A stretch of DNA of 64,000 nt from Promethearchaeota archaeon (lineage in GTDB: Archaea > Asgardarchaeota > Lokiarchaeia > Sigyniarchaeales > SOKP01), in contig JAHLWP010000001.1 of assembly GCA_019057865.1 (NCBI GenBank), positions 64,001 to 128,000 on the forward strand. The letters are read 5' to 3'. The first letter of the stretch is position 1; each line of letters starts with the position of its first letter. Position numbers and translations under genes: made by a program. The notes under the pieces were generated by a model. That model was not told the origin of the DNA, did not search any database, and saw only the letters and a program-made list of their open reading frames with translations. Below are positions 13,887-62,095 of this stretch, piece by piece.

Positions 13887-13955
13887 ATGTGTTAATGGTG
13901 CAACCATTTCTTCAACTGAGTTCTCATTTTTCTAACTCAGAATCATTAGACACAT
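13887..13955 (-). promoter_or_regulatory. Eukaryote-like SECIS element in the 3' UTR of hdrA-mvhD
   Basis: Minus strand: atgtgt-cta-ATGA-T-TCTGAGTT-AGAAAAATGAG-AACTCAGT-TGAA-ga-AATGG-TTGCA-CCATT-a-acacat. AUGA/GA core, 7-bp perfect stem, A-rich apical loop, closing helix; starts 8 nt after the mvhD stop. Confidence 0.88.
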
Positions 13956-13963
13956 TTTTCATT

Positions 13964-14443
13964 CTATTCGGTTTTTTTCTTTTTTTGTCCATTTGAATCC
14001 TTATTTTTTTCTAATAATAAAGATTCCTTTATAGGGTTGCTGCCTAAATTCTCAATGATCTCTGAAATTCTAATCATTTCTTCTTGAAATATCTGACCCT
14101 CTGCAGAGCTGCAATGAAACATTACGATTCTATCTGGTGATAGTCCAGTAGTCTTTAAAATTTCTTTAGCATAATTTACATTTCTTTCTGCTATAAGATT
14201 TCCAGTCTCATAGTCACATTCTCCTTCATATCATCCAGCCACTATAACACCATCAGCACCCTTTCCAATCGCTCGCATCAATAAACTTGGAGTTACTCGA
14301 CCTGTGCAATTTATTCTTACCGGTCTTATTGTTGCAGGATATTGAGCTCGAATTGTCCCTGCCATGTCAGCCCCTCCATATCCTCATTTCCAACAGAGAA
14401 AAGCTAATATTTTTTTATCTCTACTTTCTGTTATTTTTATCAC
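13964..14443 (-). CDS. mvhD: MvhD/VhuD (FlpD family) [2Fe-2S] subunit, selenoprotein with 2 Sec; absent from the ORF track
   Basis: Hand translation: ...KILAFLCWK-U-GYGGADMAG...RINCTGRV...GADGVIVAG-U-YEGECDYETGN...CSSAEG. TGA at 14386-14384 and 14233-14231 occupy conserved Cys positions. TAG stop at 13966-13964. Start GTG 14443 or ATA 14434. Confidence 0.93.
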
Positions 14444-21665: not shown

Positions 21666-22001
21666 ATGCATAAAACAGATATGAAACTTGAAAATTTAAG
21701 ATTGGATTTATTAAGAGCTCTTTCCGATGAAACTAGATTAAAACTTTTAGAGTTTCTAAGGCATGGAAATGAGATTTGTGTTTGCGACATTGAAAAAGTG
21801 TTTGATAAAACTCAATCTACATTATCTAGACATTTAAAAACTCTTACTGAAGCAGACATCCTTGAAAGTAGAAGGGAAGGGAATAAAAAATTGTTTAAAG
21901 TAAAAGATACCCAAATTTTCAAGTTATTGGCAATAGTAGATAATTTAATTAAAAGAAATGAAAAATTTAAAAAAATTGTAGAACTCCAGCAAAAAATATA
22001 A
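21666..22001 (+). CDS. arsR: ArsR/SmtB transcriptional repressor (alpha3 Cys type)
   Basis: ALSDETRLKLL, EICVCDI, QSTLSRHLKTL; divergent from the DGC operon. Confidence 0.9.
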   Translation: MHKTDMKLENLRLDLLRALSDETRLKLLEFLRHGNEICVCDIEKVFDKTQSTLSRHLKTLTEADILESRREGNKKLFKVKDTQIFKLLAIVDNLIKRNEKFKKIVELQQKI

Positions 22002-22016
22002 AATGAAGGTGTTAAA

Positions 22017-22310
22017 ATGGTTCAACAAGAGAGTGAACTTCAAAAAGAAAATAAACTTAAAGTAGAAATTTATGTGCCTTTAAATGTATGCGCTTGCCAA
22101 TGGGAAAGATTTATGAATCTCGTTTTTCAGGTAATTACACCTTATAATAAGTATATAACATTCGATACAAAGAATTTAGATTCTGAAGAAGCAAGAAAAT
22201 TGAATTTGCATGGTAATAGTGTAGTTATTGATGGAAATGAAATCGTTACGACATCATTTGCTCTGAAGAAAAAGCTACCAGAAATATTGAAGTCAAAAGG
22301 TTTGATTTAA
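22017..22310 (+). CDS. Small thioredoxin-fold / ArsD-like Cys protein
   Basis: KVEIYVPLNVCACQW...VVIDGNEIV: beta strand, Cys pair and a thioredoxin-like C-terminal strand. Confidence 0.55.
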   Translation: MVQQESELQKENKLKVEIYVPLNVCACQWERFMNLVFQVITPYNKYITFDTKNLDSEEARKLNLHGNSVVIDGNEIVTTSFALKKKLPEILKSKGLI

Positions 22311-22311
22311 T

Positions 22312-22788
22312 TTGAGTAAAAAAGATATCCACGCAGAAAACATTGTCTTAATACCATGTTCAGGTTCAGAATATCATGGTGAATTAGCACGACAGGTAGC
22401 AATACGATTGGCGGAGAAAAGTAAAATAGCTTCTATTAGCTCATTGACATGCTCCACTATTTTTCTTAAAAATGTATTATTAGAAAAAGAACAATTAGTT
22501 GAAATTACCAAAAATCATCTCAAACATTCCTTTATTATTATTATTAACGGATGTAACACAGCCTGTGTAAGTGTAATTTATAAACATCTTGATATTGTAC
22601 CAGATTTGATTATTTCCGTCCAAGCTATCATCCCTAAGCAACGTATGAATTTAAATGATCTAAATACTTTTAAGAATCTACCTAAATTAAGCGAAATTAA
22701 AGAGGAGGATATAAGAAAGGTACTTGAGTATATTCTTCAAGAAATACAGAAACAAGGGCTTAATATTGATAAATTCGATGAAAATTAA
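22312..22788 (+). CDS. DGC-like domain protein
   Basis: LIPCSG...LTC...INGCNTACV. Confidence 0.7.
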   Translation: MSKKDIHAENIVLIPCSGSEYHGELARQVAIRLAEKSKIASISSLTCSTIFLKNVLLEKEQLVEITKNHLKHSFIIIINGCNTACVSVIYKHLDIVPDLIISVQAIIPKQRMNLNDLNTFKNLPKLSEIKEEDIRKVLEYILQEIQKQGLNIDKFDEN

Positions 22789-24288: not shown

Positions 24289-24370
24289 GGAATATATAGG
24301 ACGCAATCCTATTGTCAATCTTTTACTAGTATTTTTTTAAAAGATTTCATTCAATTTTTTTACATATTCC
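24289..24370 (-). promoter_or_regulatory. Second eukaryote-like SECIS element
   Basis: Minus strand: ggaatat-gtaaaaaattga-ATGA-A-ATCTTTTA-AAAAAATACTAG-TAAAAGAT-TGAC-a-ATAGGA-TTGCG-TCCTAT-atattcc. Perfect 8-bp stem, AUGA/GA core, A-run loop, same auxiliary TTGCR hairpin as 13887-13955. Confidence 0.85.
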
Positions 24371-24845
24371 TTTTTAATTTAAAATAATGGGCAAATATCT
24401 CATTATCTTTCCCATATCTTTTTCGAATGGTTGCTTTAAACCGTCCTATATCCAATCTATTTCTCACTTTTTCTCATCAACATCCCGAATCTGGTTGTAT
24501 ATCGATAATGCTATTTGGATATAGATTAAAATCTATATCTTCTCTTAATGGCATAAAATTCCTTGGGTTTCCCTCTTCATCTGGACCATATGGCATTAAT
24601 CCAATATCATCATAAATTTCATTTTGTTTAGGGTTCCACACGAGTTGCAGATAGTTATGGATATAATCCTTAAATATTGGGAAAATCGAATCTTGGGGGT
24701 GTTCAAAAATATATTTATCAACCATGGCTAAAGCTTGTACAAATGTGGCATTATCATCTACCTCAACAGTAAATTCCTTTCCTTTTGATAATCCCGTTAG
24801 TGGTATACTTATCTTAAACGTAATTTTCTTAATTTTTGTTATCAC
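24360..24845 (-). CDS. Beta-grasp (SAMP/MoaD-like) protein, candidate selenoprotein with Gly-Cys-Sec-Sec and a 37-aa tail
   Basis: ...NLYPNSIIDIQPDSG-TGT-TGA-TGA (24479-24474), then EKVRNRLDIGRFKATIRKRYGKDNEIFAHYFKLKRNM-TAA (24362-24360). SECIS directly follows. Start probably at or just after the GAGGTGA motif (GTG 24845). Confidence 0.78.
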
Positions 24846-24911: not shown

Positions 24912-25976
24912 TTATTTGTATTTACTGTTTGTCTCTTGATATCCTTTCCAGAAACCATGTCTACCTAAATATCTCCCTAAATAAACCAAGGATAACATTA
25001 CAGGAATTTCCCAGAATAACCCCATTGTAGTCCCTAAAGCGGCAATCGAACCTACACCATACATCGTTACAGCAACGGCAATCGCAATTTCGAAATGACT
25101 TGAAGACCCTATAAGTACCGTTATAATTGCTTGGCTATATTTCACTTTTAATACTTTAGTAACTATTATATTATACCCCACAACAATTGCAAATCCGACT
25201 AATAGGGGTACCGTAATTAAAAGCAATAAATCGGGGTTATCTATAAGCACTTGACCATTCAAGGAAAATAACACCATTAATGTCATTAATAAGGCAACTA
25301 TGGCTATAGTGGAAACAACCGGTCGGTATTTATTATGGAACCAATCTTCACCTTTGGATTTCACTAACGTTTTTTTACTAATTACGCCAAATAAGAGCGG
25401 AAGTCCGATAAATACTCCTAATGAAATCAATAACATGATTGGATCTAAAGGAATTTTCTTTTCTAAAGTAATATTTGCTATACTTACCAGAAGTGTCATT
25501 ACAGGTATATACAAAATAATTATTGTTATTGTATTTAAGCTGGTTGTAATAACATTTTGTTCTTGGTTTCCTTTTGCTAACCACCCCCATACCAAAACCA
25601 TTGCAGTACAAGGGCTACTACTTAGCAAGATAACTGCAAGTATAAGTTGCTGATTTCCTCCTAAAAATAAAAGTGCCATTCCGAGCCCTACAAATGGCGC
25701 GACAATCCAATTCGAAAAAAGTGTCAGTATGATAGGTTTTGGATTTTTTCCAAGCTTTTTTAACTCTGAGGCTTGAAGATTTAACATTGCCGGATACATC
25801 ATAAGAAATAAACAAACACCAATTGGTATAGAAATTCCGGCAATTTGCCAAGAATCAATTACTTCACTTATGCCTGGGACATACTGAGAGATAAGGATTC
25901 CGATAATAATGCATAACGCTATCCAAACTGGTAGCAATTTATCAAATACTCCAAGTTTTTTTTCTTCGTCACTCAT
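24912..25976 (-). CDS. acr3: ACR3-family arsenite efflux transporter
   Basis: LFLMMYPAM, NWIVAPF, SPCTAMVLVW, SSHFEIAIAVA, WEIPVML. Confidence 0.95.
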   Translation of the reverse strand: MSDEEKKLGVFDKLLPVWIALCIIIGILISQYVPGISEVIDSWQIAGISIPIGVCLFLMMYPAMLNLQASELKKLGKNPKPIILTLFSNWIVAPFVGLGMALLFLGGNQQLILAVILLSSSPCTAMVLVWGWLAKGNQEQNVITTSLNTITIIILYIPVMTLLVSIANITLEKKIPLDPIMLLISLGVFIGLPLLFGVISKKTLVKSKGEDWFHNKYRPVVSTIAIVALLMTLMVLFSLNGQVLIDNPDLLLLITVPLLVGFAIVVGYNIIVTKVLKVKYSQAIITVLIGSSSHFEIAIAVAVTMYGVGSIAALGTTMGLFWEIPVMLSLVYLGRYLGRHGFWKGYQETNSKYK

Positions 25977-26126: not shown

Positions 26127-26549
26127 TTGAAAGTGATACAAATTAAAAGTGAAAGAAAAGCTGAAATAATTAATAGTCTGAAACTATGTTTTGATCTTCA
26201 AGATCAAGATATAGAACCTTATTTTAATACCTTAAGAGAAATTGGTATTAAATTAAATAAAAATAAAAGTTTAATAGATCTTACGAAATTCTCCAATGTT
26301 TTAGGAAATGAAACCCGTTTTAAAATTGTACAGTTGTTAAATGATAAAGATTATTGTGTATGTGAATTGGAAGCAATAATAGATAAAGCGCAATCCTCAA
26401 TTTCTCATCATTTAAAAATACTTGAACGCATGAAAATAATAAGAGGTATAAAAAGAGGTTATTTTACTCATTATGAATTAATTAAAGAACAATTTCAGAA
26501 ATATGTACAGAATTTTGAGAAATATTTTGAATTATTTAATTTTTCATAA
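26127..26549 (+). CDS. arsR: ArsR/SmtB transcriptional repressor
   Basis: LGNETRFKIV, DYCVCEL, QSSISHHLKIL; divergent from acr3. Confidence 0.88.
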   Translation: MKVIQIKSERKAEIINSLKLCFDLQDQDIEPYFNTLREIGIKLNKNKSLIDLTKFSNVLGNETRFKIVQLLNDKDYCVCELEAIIDKAQSSISHHLKILERMKIIRGIKRGYFTHYELIKEQFQKYVQNFEKYFELFNFS

Positions 26550-26713: not shown

Positions 26714-27079
26714 ATGCATCTAAAGAATAAAGAAAAAATAGAAAGGTTAATTAAATTTTTTGGAATAGATAGAGATATTAATGAATATCTTGAAGATTTA
26801 GAAAGAAAAAAAGATGAGATCTTATCTAAAAGTAATTTTAATGAAAAAGTTAATTATTTTTATGCACTAGGAAATAGCGTAAGATTTTTAATTTATAACT
26901 TAATAGGAAAAAAAGAAATGTGTGTATGTGAGTTGACAGCAATTTTAAATGTATCTCAATCCACAATATCTCATCATATAAATAAATTAAAACAAGCAGG
27001 ATTAGTTTTTGGTGTTAAGAAAGGAAAATTCACCTATTATGAAATATATAAAAATATAGAGAAAAAATACCTAATTTGA
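26714..27079 (+). CDS. arsR: ArsR/SmtB transcriptional repressor
   Basis: ALGNSVRFLI, EMCVCEL, SQSTISHHINKL. Confidence 0.88.
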   Translation: MHLKNKEKIERLIKFFGIDRDINEYLEDLERKKDEILSKSNFNEKVNYFYALGNSVRFLIYNLIGKKEMCVCELTAILNVSQSTISHHINKLKQAGLVFGVKKGKFTYYEIYKNIEKKYLI

Positions 27080-27166
27080 GAACTAATTTTAGAAAGAAAT
27101 CTAAAACTTTTTTTGGAGAAAAACAAAATTATGATCAAATTTTTCTTTAATTTTAATAGAAATTTC

Positions 27167-28004
27167 TCATTCAATACAACAGCTTATAACAGATATATCT
27201 CGTTTAAAGGATTGAGCTGTAAGTTTAATCGCTTCTGACAATGTAGGAAAAACATGTATTGTGTTAATAACATCATCAAGTGTCATATGATTTTTAATAA
27301 TCATAACACCTTCATGAATTAGATCAGCCGCATTACGAGATAAAATATGAATACCTAATATTTTTTCAGTTTTCCTATTAATAACAATTTTTAATACTCC
27401 TCTATCATCATTAATGATTTTTGCTTTAGGGACAAAACTAATTGGATAGTATTGCATCTGCAAACAAATCCCTTTTGATTTACTGTAAGTTCAGTTAAAC
27501 CTATACTCCCAACTTGAGGGTCGGTAAAAATCGCGTGGGGAACCACTTTGTAATCCATTCTAATCTTTTCATTTGATAAAGTATTATTTGCAGCAATCAT
27601 ACCTTCTCTAGCAGCAATGGTTTCTAACATTGGTTCGCCTATTACATCCCCAGCAGTCCATATATTATCCATAACATTCATAAATTCGTCGACAATGATT
27701 TCTCCTTTCTTTCCTAAAGTTATTCCAATCCAAGATTTTTAGTATTTGCTCTCCTTCCCGTTGCAATTAAGAGTTGTTCTGCTTTAAAAGATAATTCATT
27801 ATTATTAAAAATTACATTTAATTTTATTTCAGAACCTTCTTTTTCAATTTTATTTATTTTAGCATTGGTGTATATTTCGAACCTCTCATCTTGCAGATAT
27901 TCTTTCAGATAATGAGATATTTCAGGTTCTTCATTTGGTACTATGTTATCTAATATTTCAAAAAGATATACCTTTGTACCAAATCGAGAAAACAATTGAG
28001 TAAA
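27167..28004 (-). pseudogene. merA: Mercuric reductase-like flavoprotein remnant (5' truncated, two frameshifts)
   Basis: Three consecutive fragments: LLIATGRRAN / AGDVIGEPMLETIAAREG...FTDPQVGSIGLTE / HVFPTLSEAIKLTAQSF...ISCCIE (C-terminal vicinal Cys). The N-terminal FAD and redox-disulfide half is missing next to the hisS stop. Confidence 0.85.
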
Positions 28005-28015
28005 GATATTCCTTT

Positions 28016-29365
28016 TTATTCTCCAAATTGTTCTATAATATTATAAATTTCTTCAATAAGATAAGTTAATTTAATAGTTTTTTGATCTTCAGTCTTCATA
28101 TTTCTAATTGTAACTTCATTTTTTTCCACTTCTTGAGGTCCCACGATTAATGTGATCAATACTCCAAGCTCGTTTGCTCTGCTTAATTGATTTTTTAAAT
28201 TTTTGAATCTGTAATCAATTAGACATGGAATTTCCTCATTACGCACAACTTCAGCTATTTTAAAGGAGTATATGAATACTTCTTCATTAATAGATGCAAT
28301 ATAAATTGTATCAGTATAATCTTTCTCTCTAACTTCTTCTGGAATTAAGTTATATGTTTTCAAGAATAAAGATAACATTAAAATACCCATCCCAAATCCA
28401 GTACCAGTTATTTTTTCATCTGAAAATAGTGATAATAAATCATCATATCGACCTCCTCCGAAAATACTTCTTATATTTTCCTTTCCTGTATCGAATACTT
28501 CATAGATAATTCCTGTATAGTAATCTAAACCTCTCACAGTACCAGAAGAAAAAGTACAATAATCTGAAATTTCTACTTCAGATAGTAATCTTTCAAAATC
28601 AATTAGTTCAAGATAACCTATAGAGTCATAAAATTCTTTAGGTATATTATCAAATTTCTCTAATAATTCGTTTACACTTTTCGAATCTTTTATTTTGAAT
28701 ATACCTTGTATAATCACTTCGTTCTTAAATGTATCAATTACATATTTCTCAAACTCATTCTCTTCCATTTTGTCTGATTTATCTAATACCTTGTAAACAA
28801 TTGGTATTTTATCTTCACTTATTTTAAGTATAAATTTAGAAAGTGAATCCATGAATCGTCGACTATTATAATAAATTTGAAATTGCTCTGATGTGGCTCC
28901 AAATTCAGTAAATATATCTACAATTATATTAAATATTTCAAGATCAGCGTAAAGGCTCTTTTCGCCAAGAATATCGAAATTGGGTTGTTTAAAGGACCTT
29001 TTCCTGCCTTTTTGAGGTCTTTCATAACGATAACAAGTTGGAACTGAAAACCATCTTATTGGTTTTTTTAGCTCTTGACTTTTTTTCGCTACCATTCGTG
29101 CCAAGGATGGTGTAAGCTCTGGAATCAGTATTAGTCTCTCTCCTTTTTTCTTTTCAACAATAAAAGATTGTTCGTTAACTAGTTCATCAGAAGATTTAGC
29201 AGCAAAAATTTCAATCGGTTCTAATAGTGGAGTTTCAAATTCTTCATAGCAATATCTCTCGGCCACATCTCTTATTGTTTCAATTATCCAATTAACTTCA
29301 CGTAAGTCAGACGGATAATAGTCTTCCATTCCACGAATTGGCTGTGTACTGAACTTTTTGGACAT
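28016..29365 (-). CDS. hisS: Histidine--tRNA ligase
   Basis: RGMEDY, PELTPSLAR, YRYERPQKGR, VRGLDYYTG, GGGRYD. Confidence 0.97.
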   Translation of the reverse strand: MSKKFSTQPIRGMEDYYPSDLREVNWIIETIRDVAERYCYEEFETPLLEPIEIFAAKSSDELVNEQSFIVEKKKGERLILIPELTPSLARMVAKKSQELKKPIRWFSVPTCYRYERPQKGRKRSFKQPNFDILGEKSLYADLEIFNIIVDIFTEFGATSEQFQIYYNSRRFMDSLSKFILKISEDKIPIVYKVLDKSDKMEENEFEKYVIDTFKNEVIIQGIFKIKDSKSVNELLEKFDNIPKEFYDSIGYLELIDFERLLSEVEISDYCTFSSGTVRGLDYYTGIIYEVFDTGKENIRSIFGGGRYDDLLSLFSDEKITGTGFGMGILMLSLFLKTYNLIPEEVREKDYTDTIYIASINEEVFIYSFKIAEVVRNEEIPCLIDYRFKNLKNQLSRANELGVLITLIVGPQEVEKNEVTIRNMKTEDQKTIKLTYLIEEIYNIIEQFGE

Positions 29366-29542
29366 CCAATCACTTAAACTAAGATTGTTTAGAATTAAAT
29401 TTAAAAAAGAACCTTCTCAAATATTTTTTTCGATTTATCAGTAATATTTTTCTTATTTTTTATATGTAATTTACTAAGCTTTTAATTATTATAAATAAAA
29501 TTTTTAAATAAATGAATAAATTACTGTTTAGGAGATATTATA

Positions 29543-31099: not shown

Positions 31100-31128
31100 A
31101 ATTAACCTGAGGAGGAGAAAATTTTATA

Positions 31129-32556
31129 ATGCCGATTATTAGACCAAAAATTAATCTATTAGATAATGAACATAAGAAATCAATTTTTACTGAAGCTAAA
31201 TTGATATTAGAGACTCAAGGTGTATTCCTTGAAAATCGAGAGGCAAAGGAGTTATTTAACCAGCATGAAATTGATTTTAAAGGTTCACGCTATTTTATTC
31301 CGCATGATTTAGTAGATAAATGTTTAGCCTCTGTACCTAGAGAAATAAGTTTATACGATAGAGAAGGGAATGAGCATATTCAATTAAAGAATGATCAAGT
31401 TCATTTTGATCCAGGTTCTGCTGCGATATTTATTCTTGATGAGAATACTGGAAAAATTAGAGAAGCCTTGTCGAGAGATTTTGTTCGCTTTTCAAAAGTG
31501 GTTGAGCATTTAAAATTTATTGAAGCTCAAAGTACGGCTTTAATTTATAAAGATGTTCCTAATGTAGCTCAGGACTGGCATCGATTATATATAGCTTTAT
31601 CTAATTGTTATAAACCGGTAGTAACCGGAACATTTCGTAAAGAAAGCTTTTCAATCATGCGGGAAATACTATTAGCCTGCAGACTATCTGAAGATGATTT
31701 AGCAAAAAAACCACTAGCTATCTTTGATGCATGCCCAAGTCCTCCTTTGAAGTGGTCTGATCTTACAACTCAATCTTTAATTGATGCAGCTAAAAGTATG
31801 ATACCATCTGAGTTTGTCTCGATGCCCTTAGCAGGTGCGAGCGCACCCATAACATTAATAGGATCCATCACACAACATTGTGCGGAATGTCTTGCTGGTG
31901 TTGTAATTGCTCAATTAACAAAGTATGGTGCACCCTTAGTATGGGGAGGTTCTCCGGCTGTATTTGATATGAAACAAGGAACAACTCCAATGGGTGCAAT
32001 CGAGACGATGATGATAAACATTGGAGATATTGAAATGGGAAAATTCTTGAATATGCCTACTCATGCATATATGGGTTTAAGTGATTCAAAAGTTCCTGAT
32101 AGCCAAGCAGGTTTTGAAGCAGGAATGGGAGCCCTTTTAGCAGCACTTGCTGGAAATAATATGGTTTCTGGTCCTGGGATGTTAGATTTTGAATCTACGC
32201 AAAGTATAGAAAAATTAATAATTGACAATGAAATTGTAGGAATGGTAAAACGTTTTATCCAAGGTATAGAGGATTATGGTTCTCCTTTTGCAGCCGAAAT
32301 TATAAAAGATTATGAAGAAACACAAGAATTATTATCTCATCCAACGACTTTAAAATATTTTAGAAAAGAACTCTTCTTACCAAGTCCTATTATAGATAGA
32401 ACAACTCGTGATACGTGGAAAGCATTAGGATCTAAATCTGCAAGAAAAAGAGCAAGAGAAGAAGCAGCTAAATTAGTAAAGAAAACACCAATAAAACCTA
32501 TTGATGATTCTCTTATTAAAGATTTAGATAAAATAGTAAAGAATGCATTAAAATAA
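31129..32556 (+). CDS. MttB-superfamily (non-pyrrolysine) methylamine/quaternary amine methyltransferase
   Basis: SPPLKW, MPLAGASAPITLIG, FDMKQG, GLSDSKVPDSQAGFE, GPGML; no in-frame TAG. Confidence 0.9.
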   Translation: MPIIRPKINLLDNEHKKSIFTEAKLILETQGVFLENREAKELFNQHEIDFKGSRYFIPHDLVDKCLASVPREISLYDREGNEHIQLKNDQVHFDPGSAAIFILDENTGKIREALSRDFVRFSKVVEHLKFIEAQSTALIYKDVPNVAQDWHRLYIALSNCYKPVVTGTFRKESFSIMREILLACRLSEDDLAKKPLAIFDACPSPPLKWSDLTTQSLIDAAKSMIPSEFVSMPLAGASAPITLIGSITQHCAECLAGVVIAQLTKYGAPLVWGGSPAVFDMKQGTTPMGAIETMMINIGDIEMGKFLNMPTHAYMGLSDSKVPDSQAGFEAGMGALLAALAGNNMVSGPGMLDFESTQSIEKLIIDNEIVGMVKRFIQGIEDYGSPFAAEIIKDYEETQELLSHPTTLKYFRKELFLPSPIIDRTTRDTWKALGSKSARKRAREEAAKLVKKTPIKPIDDSLIKDLDKIVKNALK

Positions 32557-61992: not shown

Positions 61993-62095
61993 GGCCGGGT
62001 TCGTCTAGTGGTAAGGATTGGGGACTGTGAATCCCTAGAGGTTTAAGATCTATTCTATTACCGGGGAAAGACGGGTTCAATTCCCGTACCCGGCC
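61993..62095 (+). tRNA. tRNA-His(GUG) with a 30-nt intron (62039-62068) at about position 45/46
   Basis: Acceptor GCCGGGT/ACCCGGC, encoded G-1 and C73, anticodon loop CTGTGAA (GTG 62027-62029), T arm ACGGG-TTCAATT-CCCGT. The insertion forms a bulge-helix-bulge. Confidence 0.9.

Follow-up and report, generated by a model that had tools for sequence, protein, structure and literature searches.

Five families of selenoproteins were reported from Loki (Mariotti 2016; PMC4989117) and seven from the Asgard archaea (Huang 2024; PMC11227280), in which the hdrA-frhD pair shares one selenocysteine insertion sequence (SECIS). A 2026 review counts 11 archaeal selenoprotein families and tabulates the bacterial families with their motifs, and Haft and co-workers have described the bacterial selenoproteins SaoB/SaoC, a selenocysteine (Sec)-containing HgcB and ArsM-fusion double selenoproteins (listed in PMC13188914). 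The DNA analyzed here (the window) is a stretch of 64,000 nt from a Promethearchaeota archaeon (assembly GCA_019057865.1, contig JAHLWP010000001.1, positions 64,001 to 128,000 of the forward strand). On comparative evidence, the region 24845-24360 on the minus strand of the window very probably encodes a selenoprotein of 161 amino acid residues, belonging to an undescribed family, in which two adjacent UGA codons are both read as Sec. For the locus as a whole, a twin-Sec selenoprotein with a role in the capture and transfer of a metalloid seems the best explanation, and we lean slightly in its favor. The parts of the gene are as follows.

24360..24845, minus strand: putative full selenoprotein gene, running from a GTG start through 161 codons, two of them UGA (Sec), to a TAA stop; its full length is matched by relatives with two internal TGA codons
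24483..24845, minus strand: predicted beta-grasp domain, reaching as far as the Gly in ...PDSG (AlphaFold2 model, pLDDT 86, pTM 0.84; VIA-align matches)
24474..24482, minus strand: TGT TGA TGA, read as Cys-Sec-Sec, the proposed reactive loop; TGATGA is kept in relatives and the Cys codon varies synonymously
24363..24473, minus strand: conserved tail of 37 codons, basic and predicted to be helical, translated only with read-through of both UGAs

The first-pass annotation of the window had proposed that the open reading frame (ORF) called as ending in DSGC reads GGA TGT TGA TGA and then stays open for 37 more codons to a TAA. This was confirmed from the minus-strand sequence, in which GGA (24485-24483), TGT (24482-24480), TGA (24479-24477) and TGA (24476-24474) are followed by 37 sense codons (EKVRNRLDIGRFK...KLKRNM) and by TAA at 24362-24360. 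The GTG at 24845 stands at the alignment position where homologs start with ATG or GTG; read from there, the read-through product is 161 residues long and carries the motif ...PDSGC-UGA-UGA. Ordinary gene calling ends the ORF at ...PDSGC, and nearly all database entries likewise end at Gly-Cys. The protein gave no Pfam match (E ≤0.1) and no NCBIfam match. In the whole genome, TGA-TGA follows an open frame of at least 100 codons on 15 occasions; the doublet at this locus is more than a chance occurrence, since all four features (doublet, frame, tail and SECIS) were kept in every copy read in two sets of relatives (TGATGA in 34/34 and 72/72 copies), which draw partly on the same genomes.

A six-frame search was performed on 400 genomes of the phylum, 134 of them from the lokiarchaeal family to which the window belongs. 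Relatives were found in 138 of the 400 genomes and in 117 of the 134, often as two or three paralogs per genome in that lokiarchaeal family, and nearly all of the matches contained two internal TGA codons and covered the tail. The second copy in the window's own genome (48% identity) also has two TGAs, and members at 24–33% identity in other families of the class keep ...PDAGC-U-U.... Distant C-U-U members are present, among others, in two closed genomes (4.4 and 6.0 Mb) of a sister family. The TGA-TGA pair, on which the first-pass annotation had built its proposal, was present across relatives down to 24% identity. In every complete copy read, the stops at this site were TGA and never TAA or TAG, and homologs ending in GC-TAA or GC-TAG with neither tail nor SECIS were not seen among them. 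The Cys codon before TGATGA was TGT or TGC. Two stop-free matches (G177:C28 and G179:C46) end before the Cys-Sec-Sec site; the latter reaches the end of its contig, and the former begins at base 2 of its contig.

When 5.8 billion proteins were searched, 79 relatives were obtained, nearly all of them called as ending in D-[SPVA]-G-C. Two entries, evidently called with TGA as Trp, read GC-W-W-EKV[RK]NRLDIGKFK... and carry the same tail as the window's gene. The habit of gene callers of stopping at Gly-Cys in nearly all entries would suit a product without tandem Sec, one that ends ...SGC or ...SGCU, or an arrangement in which a small gene of its own encodes the tail and the hairpin has another purpose; so would the use of TGA as a normal stop in this genome and the fact that adjacent Sec codons were not found described in a non-exhaustive search of the literature. 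We regard this explanation as very improbable. Besides the constancy of TGA at the site in complete copies, the tail follows in the same frame at zero spacing, shows coding-type substitution and a low dN/dS, and has no start conserved in subfamily C or in distant members.

As shown by pairwise comparison, the tail differed at codon positions 1, 2 and 3 by 0.24, 0.13 and 0.41, respectively, and the body by 0.27, 0.15 and 0.45; dN/dS was 0.15 for the tail vs 0.19 for the body. The coding-type conservation anticipated for the 37-residue tail was thus borne out in both the third-position bias and the dN/dS. The other two frames of the tail were closed in 22/23 and 23/23 genes, and no conserved start codon was found 3′ of the UGAs in subfamily C (described below) or in distant members. 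Across the family, the tail after Gly-Cys-Sec-Sec measures 33–40 residues. Neither a separate small gene nor termination at the second UGA fits these data, because the tail is coding in the same frame, the other frames are closed and there is no conserved start. The reading G-C-U-stop, which the first-pass annotation had offered as its alternative, was rejected, the tail being in the same frame and under purifying selection. A shortened by-product is possible under selenium shortage.

The elements downstream of the TAA, with the element used for reference, are as follows.

24310..24356, minus strand: SECIS core (AUGA 24350-24347, helix of 24345-24338 with 24325-24318, A-rich loop 24337-24326, UGAC 24317-24314)
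24297..24311, minus strand: auxiliary hairpin UAGGA-UUGCG-UCCUA, immediately 3′ of the core and included in covariance model R1, with three of five pairs covarying
24289..24370, minus strand: possible closing helix, GGAAUAU 24370-24364 with AUAUUCC 24295-24289, seen in the sequence, which would surround the two hairpins and overlap the last codons
13907..13952, minus strand: reference SECIS, located behind VhuD (14042-14410 on the same strand), a gene that contains Sec and has two in-frame TGAs

The AUGA begins 9 nt past the TAA and about 125 nt downstream of the UGAs, and the core consists of an 8-bp helix with a 12-nt A-rich loop. The SECIS had been described as having the layout of the one behind hdrA-mvhD, and this was upheld: the layout is shared with the VhuD element at 13907-13952, and the apical loops of the two are nearly identical in sequence. 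The auxiliary hairpin was also found behind the VhuD and SelD SECIS cores of the same genome (SelD loci on G000:C30). For the closing helix, which would make a three-way junction, 24 of 30 relatives could form at least 6 bp vs 62% of shuffles, a crude test in which the helix is indistinguishable from chance in AT-rich flanks. The absence of another in-frame UGA upstream in the unit was likewise confirmed, as acr3 (24912-25976) has none and stops at TAA.

Two covariance models were used. R1 was built from the family's own elements (30 family 3′ regions); in its alignment, base pairing holds in 96.9% of cells and compensatory changes occur at 11 of 13 pairs, as against pairing in only 46–58% when the partners are slid by 1–3 columns. 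A genome scan with R1 returned the two family genes and one weak match. Since R1 was too sequence-specific for cross-validation, R2 was built from VhuD elements alone, namely 22 SECIS elements behind Sec-containing VhuD genes of related genomes. With filters off, R2 gave exactly two matches in the window, the VhuD element (38.3 bits; a training sequence) and the family element (36.6 bits, E 3.3e-6), and the next-best score in the window was 11.6 bits. The downstream hairpin was therefore recovered by a model made from VhuD SECIS elements only. Over 71 species-level loci, R2 gave 74 matches, all on the gene's strand; as we read the table of matches, they sit immediately behind the gene or the paralog in some 62 loci. 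Where family genes stand in tandem, a single SECIS lies behind the second gene, and the distance from UGA to SECIS is 107–142 nt across the family. A SECIS that is matched by a model from other genes and follows the tail and not the UGAs, as well as the sharing of one SECIS by tandem genes, speaks further against a product that lacks tandem Sec. In several relatives, the stop codon is the UGA inside the AUGA of the SECIS core (L002 2004-2065; the B gene of L003; L005 1425-1486; L032 1447-1510). In locus L029, the stretch from the stop of the family gene to the next SECIS contains, at about 1975-2256, a small ORF (MELESNVKCPHCGH...EKM-TGA-LMWIKCQ) that may be another Sec gene sharing that SECIS.

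In the whole genome of 4.26 Mb, R2 gave nine matches: four behind VhuD genes, one behind a Prx-like U-x-x-C gene, the family element and three without an identified client, at G000:C37:63571-63616 (minus), C71:19114-19158 (plus) and C54:17258-17303 (plus). The strongest unassigned SECIS (59.4 bits) follows a small membrane ORF with ...GGS-U-LC... and may mark a further unlisted selenoprotein. A loose SECIS pattern scan of the genome gave 4327 matches and was dropped as too permissive at 29% G+C. The genome encodes SepSecS (389.9 bits), and its SelD (two copies) and VhuD (four copies) genes carry in-frame TGA (Sec). TGA terminates 268 of 2101 long open frames, so it has undergone no general reassignment. 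A 102-nt tRNA match at 61994-62095 of the window (plus strand; Rfam 48 bits; no call by ARAGORN), probably intron-bearing, is the top tRNA-Sec-like match in the genome and lies below the cut-off.

The structure was predicted by AlphaFold2 from the family alignment. The model, with a predicted local distance difference test score (pLDDT) of 86 and a predicted template modeling score (pTM) of 0.84, has a beta-grasp core. In pLDDT, the tail helices reach 90–95; the Cys-Sec-Sec loop, at about 64, is probably flexible. In the VIA-align comparison, the top Z scores were those of the transcobalamin beta domain (6.9), CysO (6.7), SAMP1 (6.6), HVO_2177 (6.3) and MoaD (5.9 and 5.4), although Z below 8 may mean a common arrangement only; Urm1 and many ubiquitin-like domains stood lower in the list. 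Alignments of the SAMP1/CysO/MoaD type covered 80–93 residues at a root-mean-square deviation of ~3 Å and stopped at the C-termini of the matched chains, near model residues 122–126, which places Cys-Sec-Sec at the position of the diglycine tail. A Foldseek search of the selenoprotein model against the PDB gave no match at E ≤0.001, and a sequence-profile search of the PDB found nothing relevant. Seven other genes of the genome were detected by Pfam ThiS (PF02597) and neither family copy was, and hhalign of the family against those seven gave a probability of 2.9%. The beta-grasp fold foreseen in the first-pass annotation is the one predicted by AlphaFold2, with SAMP1, CysO and MoaD among the best VIA-align matches (all at Z below 8); the likeness to SAMP/MoaD lies in the predicted fold and is not seen in the sequence. 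On the predicted structure, the protein is SAMP/MoaD-like in fold and lies outside that family.

This fold also bears on whether the protein is a general carrier of sulfur or selenium, holding a persulfide or selenosulfide on a mobile arm comparable to the SoxY C-terminal arm or to the ThiS/MoaD/SAMP thiocarboxylate; its location in an arsenic operon in this lineage would then be secondary. The presence of CysO, SAMP1, MoaD and Urm1 among the structural matches, with the reactive residues at the exit of the last strand, counts in favor of such a carrier, but the sequence shows neither kinship to ThiS/MoaD nor a free Gly-Gly terminus. We consider a general carrier quite improbable, and the gene context described below adds to both sides.

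The genes around the selenoprotein gene in the window are as follows.

24912..25976, minus strand: acr3 arsenite efflux permease, directly upstream, 66 nt away (NCBIfam acr3, 293.4 bits, cut-off 282.8; Pfam SBF)
26127..26549, plus strand: ArsR-family regulator, divergent from acr3 (Pfam HTH_5, E 1.1e-14)
26714..27079, plus strand: second ArsR-family regulator (Pfam HTH_5, E 4.7e-15)
21666..22001, plus strand: third ArsR-family regulator, first gene of a convergent unit of arsR, the thioredoxin-like CxC gene and the DGC gene (Pfam HTH_5, E 1.4e-13)
22017..22310, plus strand: small thioredoxin-fold CxC protein in the convergent unit, 2 kb from the family gene (no Pfam or NCBIfam match; model pLDDT 82)
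22312..22788, plus strand: DGC-domain protein of the arsR-CxC-DGC unit (Pfam DGC, E 2.4e-11)

The neighbors within 3 kb of the 71 species-level loci were clustered without bias. The commonest was a CxC protein of ~93 residues, found by homology search directly upstream on the same strand in 50 of the 71 loci, followed by acr3 (46 loci; upstream, same strand), ArsR (33; divergent), an HgcB-like ferredoxin (15; upstream) and a CpaM-HgcA-like fusion (14; upstream). At least one of the CxC, acr3, ArsR, HgcA-like and HgcB-like genes was present in 62 of the 71 loci. The synteny with acr3 pointed to in the first-pass annotation accordingly recurs in 46 species loci. The usual order is arsR divergent, then acr3, the CxC gene and the family gene, sometimes with a second family gene behind it; the alternative order is hgcA-like, hgcB-like, CxC and family gene. 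In the lokiarchaeal family of the window, this strong and ordered link to acr3, arsR and HgcAB-like genes tells against a general carrier, as does the absence of ThiF/MoeB from the 16 commonest neighbor clusters, of which only some were identified and at which no ThiF/MoeB-directed search was aimed.

The paralog in the window's own genome belongs to subfamily B and is the last gene of an operon on G000:C57 (L091 3241-7970), in which a divergent arsR is followed by acr3, the cpaM-hgcA-like gene, the hgcB-like gene and the CxC gene. There, a CpaM methyltransferase is fused to an HgcA-like corrinoid/transmembrane protein, and the HgcB-like ferredoxin has a Cys-rich end. The HgcA/B-like genes scored below the NCBIfam cut-offs, so they are taken to be related to the pair that methylates mercury, not identical with it. 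The operon could serve the corrinoid-dependent methylation of a metalloid in connection with arsenite efflux.

The CxC neighbor brings in the main rival, in which the Cys-Sec-Sec loop would be a redox center that cycles as a selenenylsulfide or vicinal diselenide against the CxC protein; together the two would reduce a substrate linked to the operon, for instance arsenate, an organoarsenical or an oxidized carrier, in the manner of the Gly-Cys-Sec-Gly arm of mammalian thioredoxin reductase. By Foldseek, the model of the CxC protein, the commonest neighbor, matches thioredoxins with a probability of 1.00 and a TM-score of ~0.6, its CxC lying at the position of the thioredoxin CxxC. Gly-Cys-Sec on a flexible segment, the fact that most known selenoproteins are redox enzymes (established, and stated also in the 2026 review) and the lack of arsC in the operons agree with this reading as well. 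No arsC was found inside family operons and Pfam ArsC had no match in the genome, but four LMW-phosphatase/ArsC-type (LMWPc) genes lie elsewhere in it, so arsenate reduction is not obviously missing; ArsA/Get3-like genes also lie elsewhere. The idea of a novel arsenate reductase found no support for the same reason. The Cys-rich tails of some CxC partners, typical of metal binders, and the residue patterns given below fit redox cycling less well, and we judge it unlikely. Some CxC neighbors (L160, L162, L157 and L151) have N-terminal tails rich in Cys-Cys pairs, such as SCCGSSDSCC, as is often seen in metal-binding proteins. A Sec form of the CxC neighbor had been suspected from short ORFs and was discarded as an artefact of start-codon choice, all 67 copies read having Cys in CxC.

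Three paralogous subfamilies were distinguished in the lokiarchaeal family of the window. Subfamily A, with the window gene, has the Sec site ...PD[SP]G-C-U-U-EKV...; subfamily B has ...HA-D-U-U-A-DVM...; and subfamily C, with three Sec within four residues, has ...SSA-U-G-U-U-AK.... In the gap-free paralog alignment (G-C-U-U / D-U-U-A / U-G-U-U), only the third position is Sec throughout, and the Cys of A stands opposite the first Sec of B, a possible Cys/Sec pair of the classical kind, although non-Sec relatives never have Cys-Cys at the Sec positions. An extra Cys, found in the motif Y-x-D-C where the third beta strand begins, is present in 45/45 B genes and missing in 26/30 C-U-U genes and 4/4 U-G-U-U genes; as the beginning of this strand adjoins the end of the last strand in beta-grasp topology, the extra Cys should sit near the Sec pair in space. 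Three S/Se residues are thereby kept in each subfamily, which suggests a three-ligand metalloid site. Three S/Se residues per subfamily, including a remote Cys in B, suit such a site better than the two-electron couple of a redox center.

As(III) prefers three thiolate ligands, as in ArsD and ArsR. In the proposed mechanism, the two adjacent UGAs (24479-24474) would be decoded as Sec under the direction of the eukaryote-like SECIS past the TAA, giving a product in three predicted parts: a beta-grasp core, a flexible Cys-Sec-Sec loop and a basic helical tail that packs back on the core. One thiol and two selenols would make a three-ligand site for a soft metalloid, above all As(III) and possibly Hg(II). 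The metalloid would be handed to the co-transcribed ACR3 efflux permease or, in the operon of the paralog, to the HgcA/HgcB-like corrinoid methyltransferase instead, and the thioredoxin-fold CxC protein would act as the exchange or re-reducing partner. On the gene context and the residue patterns, the three-ligand mechanism has in our judgment an even chance. A selenium-dependent metalloid resistance, in which the beta-grasp carrier would bind As(III) or a related metalloid through As-Se bonds at Cys-Sec-Sec or Sec-Gly-Sec-Sec and deliver it to export by ACR3 or to HgcA-like methylation, is put forward tentatively, at somewhat less than that.

Several observations weigh against a twin-Sec metalloid carrier. 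The genomes compared are related to one another, so that the counts overstate independence. The tRNA-Sec-like matches in the genome are below the Rfam cut-off; one of them adjoins SepSecS. Distant Sec members, from other families of the class, mostly lack ars neighbors and adjoin genes that include hybrid-cluster protein, AFOR, a CDF transporter and M32 peptidase, the exceptions being one member with ArsR and acr3 and one that adjoins the CDF transporter; the arsenic link may be specific to one lineage. Such Sec members outside ars contexts would also suit a general carrier.

The relatives without Sec belong here as well. A profile search of 1.84 billion representatives gave 85 clusters only, of which ~33 end exactly at Gly-Cys or its equivalent. 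Fifteen clusters form a clade (support 96/93) of non-Sec relatives with the reading G-C-[IST]-[TS]-[DE]-[WF]-E.... A single non-Sec form, C-V-S, nests among the Sec forms and adjoins a NifU-like gene and not ars genes; the contigs of the non-Sec relatives P0119 and P0122 are too short for gene context. Cys-Cys at both Sec positions was seen in no homolog, the non-Sec forms being V-S or [IST]-[TS], and this weighs against a pure ligand role, because Cys substitutes would be expected at a ligand site. The fact that Gly-Cys alone survives in the non-Sec relatives, with a NifU/IscU-like gene beside one of them, is again in keeping with a general sulfur or selenium carrier.

Further observations were made in or around the loci. 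At 27104-28040 (minus strand), three frames (two frameshifts) hold the last ~300 residues of a MerA-like flavoprotein disulfide reductase that ends ...SVISCCIE. Its N-terminal half is missing and a HisRS-like gene (28019-29434) abuts the remnant, which has the look of a mercuric reductase in decay next to the ArsR genes. At 32077-32176 (plus strand), a match to Rfam PYLIS_3 (the mttB pyrrolysine insertion sequence; 49.6 bits) lies inside an MttB-superfamily ORF (31111-32553, plus strand); the ORF has no in-frame TAG and looks like a non-pyrrolysine homolog, the match arising from likeness of the coding sequence. A metagenome-assembled genome labeled ‘Candidatus Nanopelagicaceae bacterium’ (L099 and L151; DATKTW010000027.1 and DATKTW010000069.1) carries family genes of the lokiarchaeal type and is probably mislabeled or a mixed bin.

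None of the published lists of Asgard and archaeal selenoproteins consulted (Mariotti 2016; Huang 2024; the 2026 review) contains the family, in agreement with the first-pass annotation, which had not recognized it among archaeal selenoproteins; adjacent Sec residues occur in none of the motifs tabulated in the 2026 review. The Asgard surveys (PMC4989117, PMC11227280) relied chiefly on homology, either to families already known or to Cys homologs, which may be why the family went unlisted, and it was possibly missed because it has no known-family match and no Cys-Cys form. It would be the twelfth archaeal selenoprotein family, and its gene is cut off at Gly-Cys in almost every database entry seen. 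In common with the Asgard selenoproteins (VhuD/FrhD, HdrA, VhuU/FrhA, SelD and Prx-like), it combines an in-frame UGA with a type-I SECIS (AUGA, A-rich loop, GA) shortly past the stop, and, as for hdrA-frhD, one SECIS can serve two adjacent family genes. Unlike them, it has no Pfam or NCBIfam model, its Sec codons are adjacent and no homolog has Cys at both positions.

The likeness to ThiS, MoaD, CysO, SAMP1-3 and Urm1 lies in the predicted beta-grasp and in reactive residues placed where the C-terminal tail leaves the last strand. Unlike ThiS/MoaD/SAMP, the protein shows no sequence relation to them, has a larger core (~120 residues) with insertions, and carries no free Gly-Gly carboxylate but Gly-Cys-Sec-Sec followed by 37 residues. 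It would be a ubiquitin-like fold with selenium where the sulfur carriers have their reactive end.

ArsD is an arsenic metallochaperone with the thioredoxin fold that binds through Cys12-Cys13-Cys18 and serves the ArsA ATPase, and MerA and HgcB have vicinal Cys-Cys arms. The family protein resembles these proteins in its vicinal chalcogen pair with a putative third ligand, in its metalloid-resistance operon and in the proposed capture and transfer of As(III)/Hg(II). It differs from ArsD in having a predicted beta-grasp, in using selenium and in accompanying ACR3, and Pfam ArsD (PF06953) matched neither the family protein nor the CxC neighbor. In mammalian thioredoxin reductase, a Gly-Cys-Sec-Gly arm forms a selenenylsulfide and binds soft metals and arsenicals. 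Gly-Cys-Sec on a flexible segment is common to both proteins, which are otherwise unrelated, the reductase being a large flavoenzyme with a single penultimate Sec.

As in the families of Haft and co-workers (PMC13188914), Sec is proposed here as a ligand of Hg or As and the neighborhoods are those of organometallic chemistry or resistance; those families, unlike the present one, are bacterial, with a bacterial SECIS, other folds and non-adjacent Sec (CU, UxxG, CxxU), and none of them matches the present protein in NCBIfam. The fixed place of the family in operons with acr3, arsR and HgcAB-like genes suggests that anoxic sediments host an arsenic or mercury chemistry based on selenium.

Finally, selenoprotein P, SelL, VhuD and the Loki PrxL.1 (two Sec) resemble the family in that several UGAs depend on one SECIS in the 3′ untranslated region. 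Their Sec residues are spaced (UxxU in SelL; 50 codons apart in VhuD), whereas the two of this family are adjacent. Adjacent Sec codons offer a natural test case for how an archaeal eukaryote-like SECIS delivers two consecutive Sec-tRNAs, and have a bearing on how eukaryotes came by processive Sec insertion; if selenium-dependent metalloid resistance is the true role, processive Sec insertion would be older than selenoprotein P.

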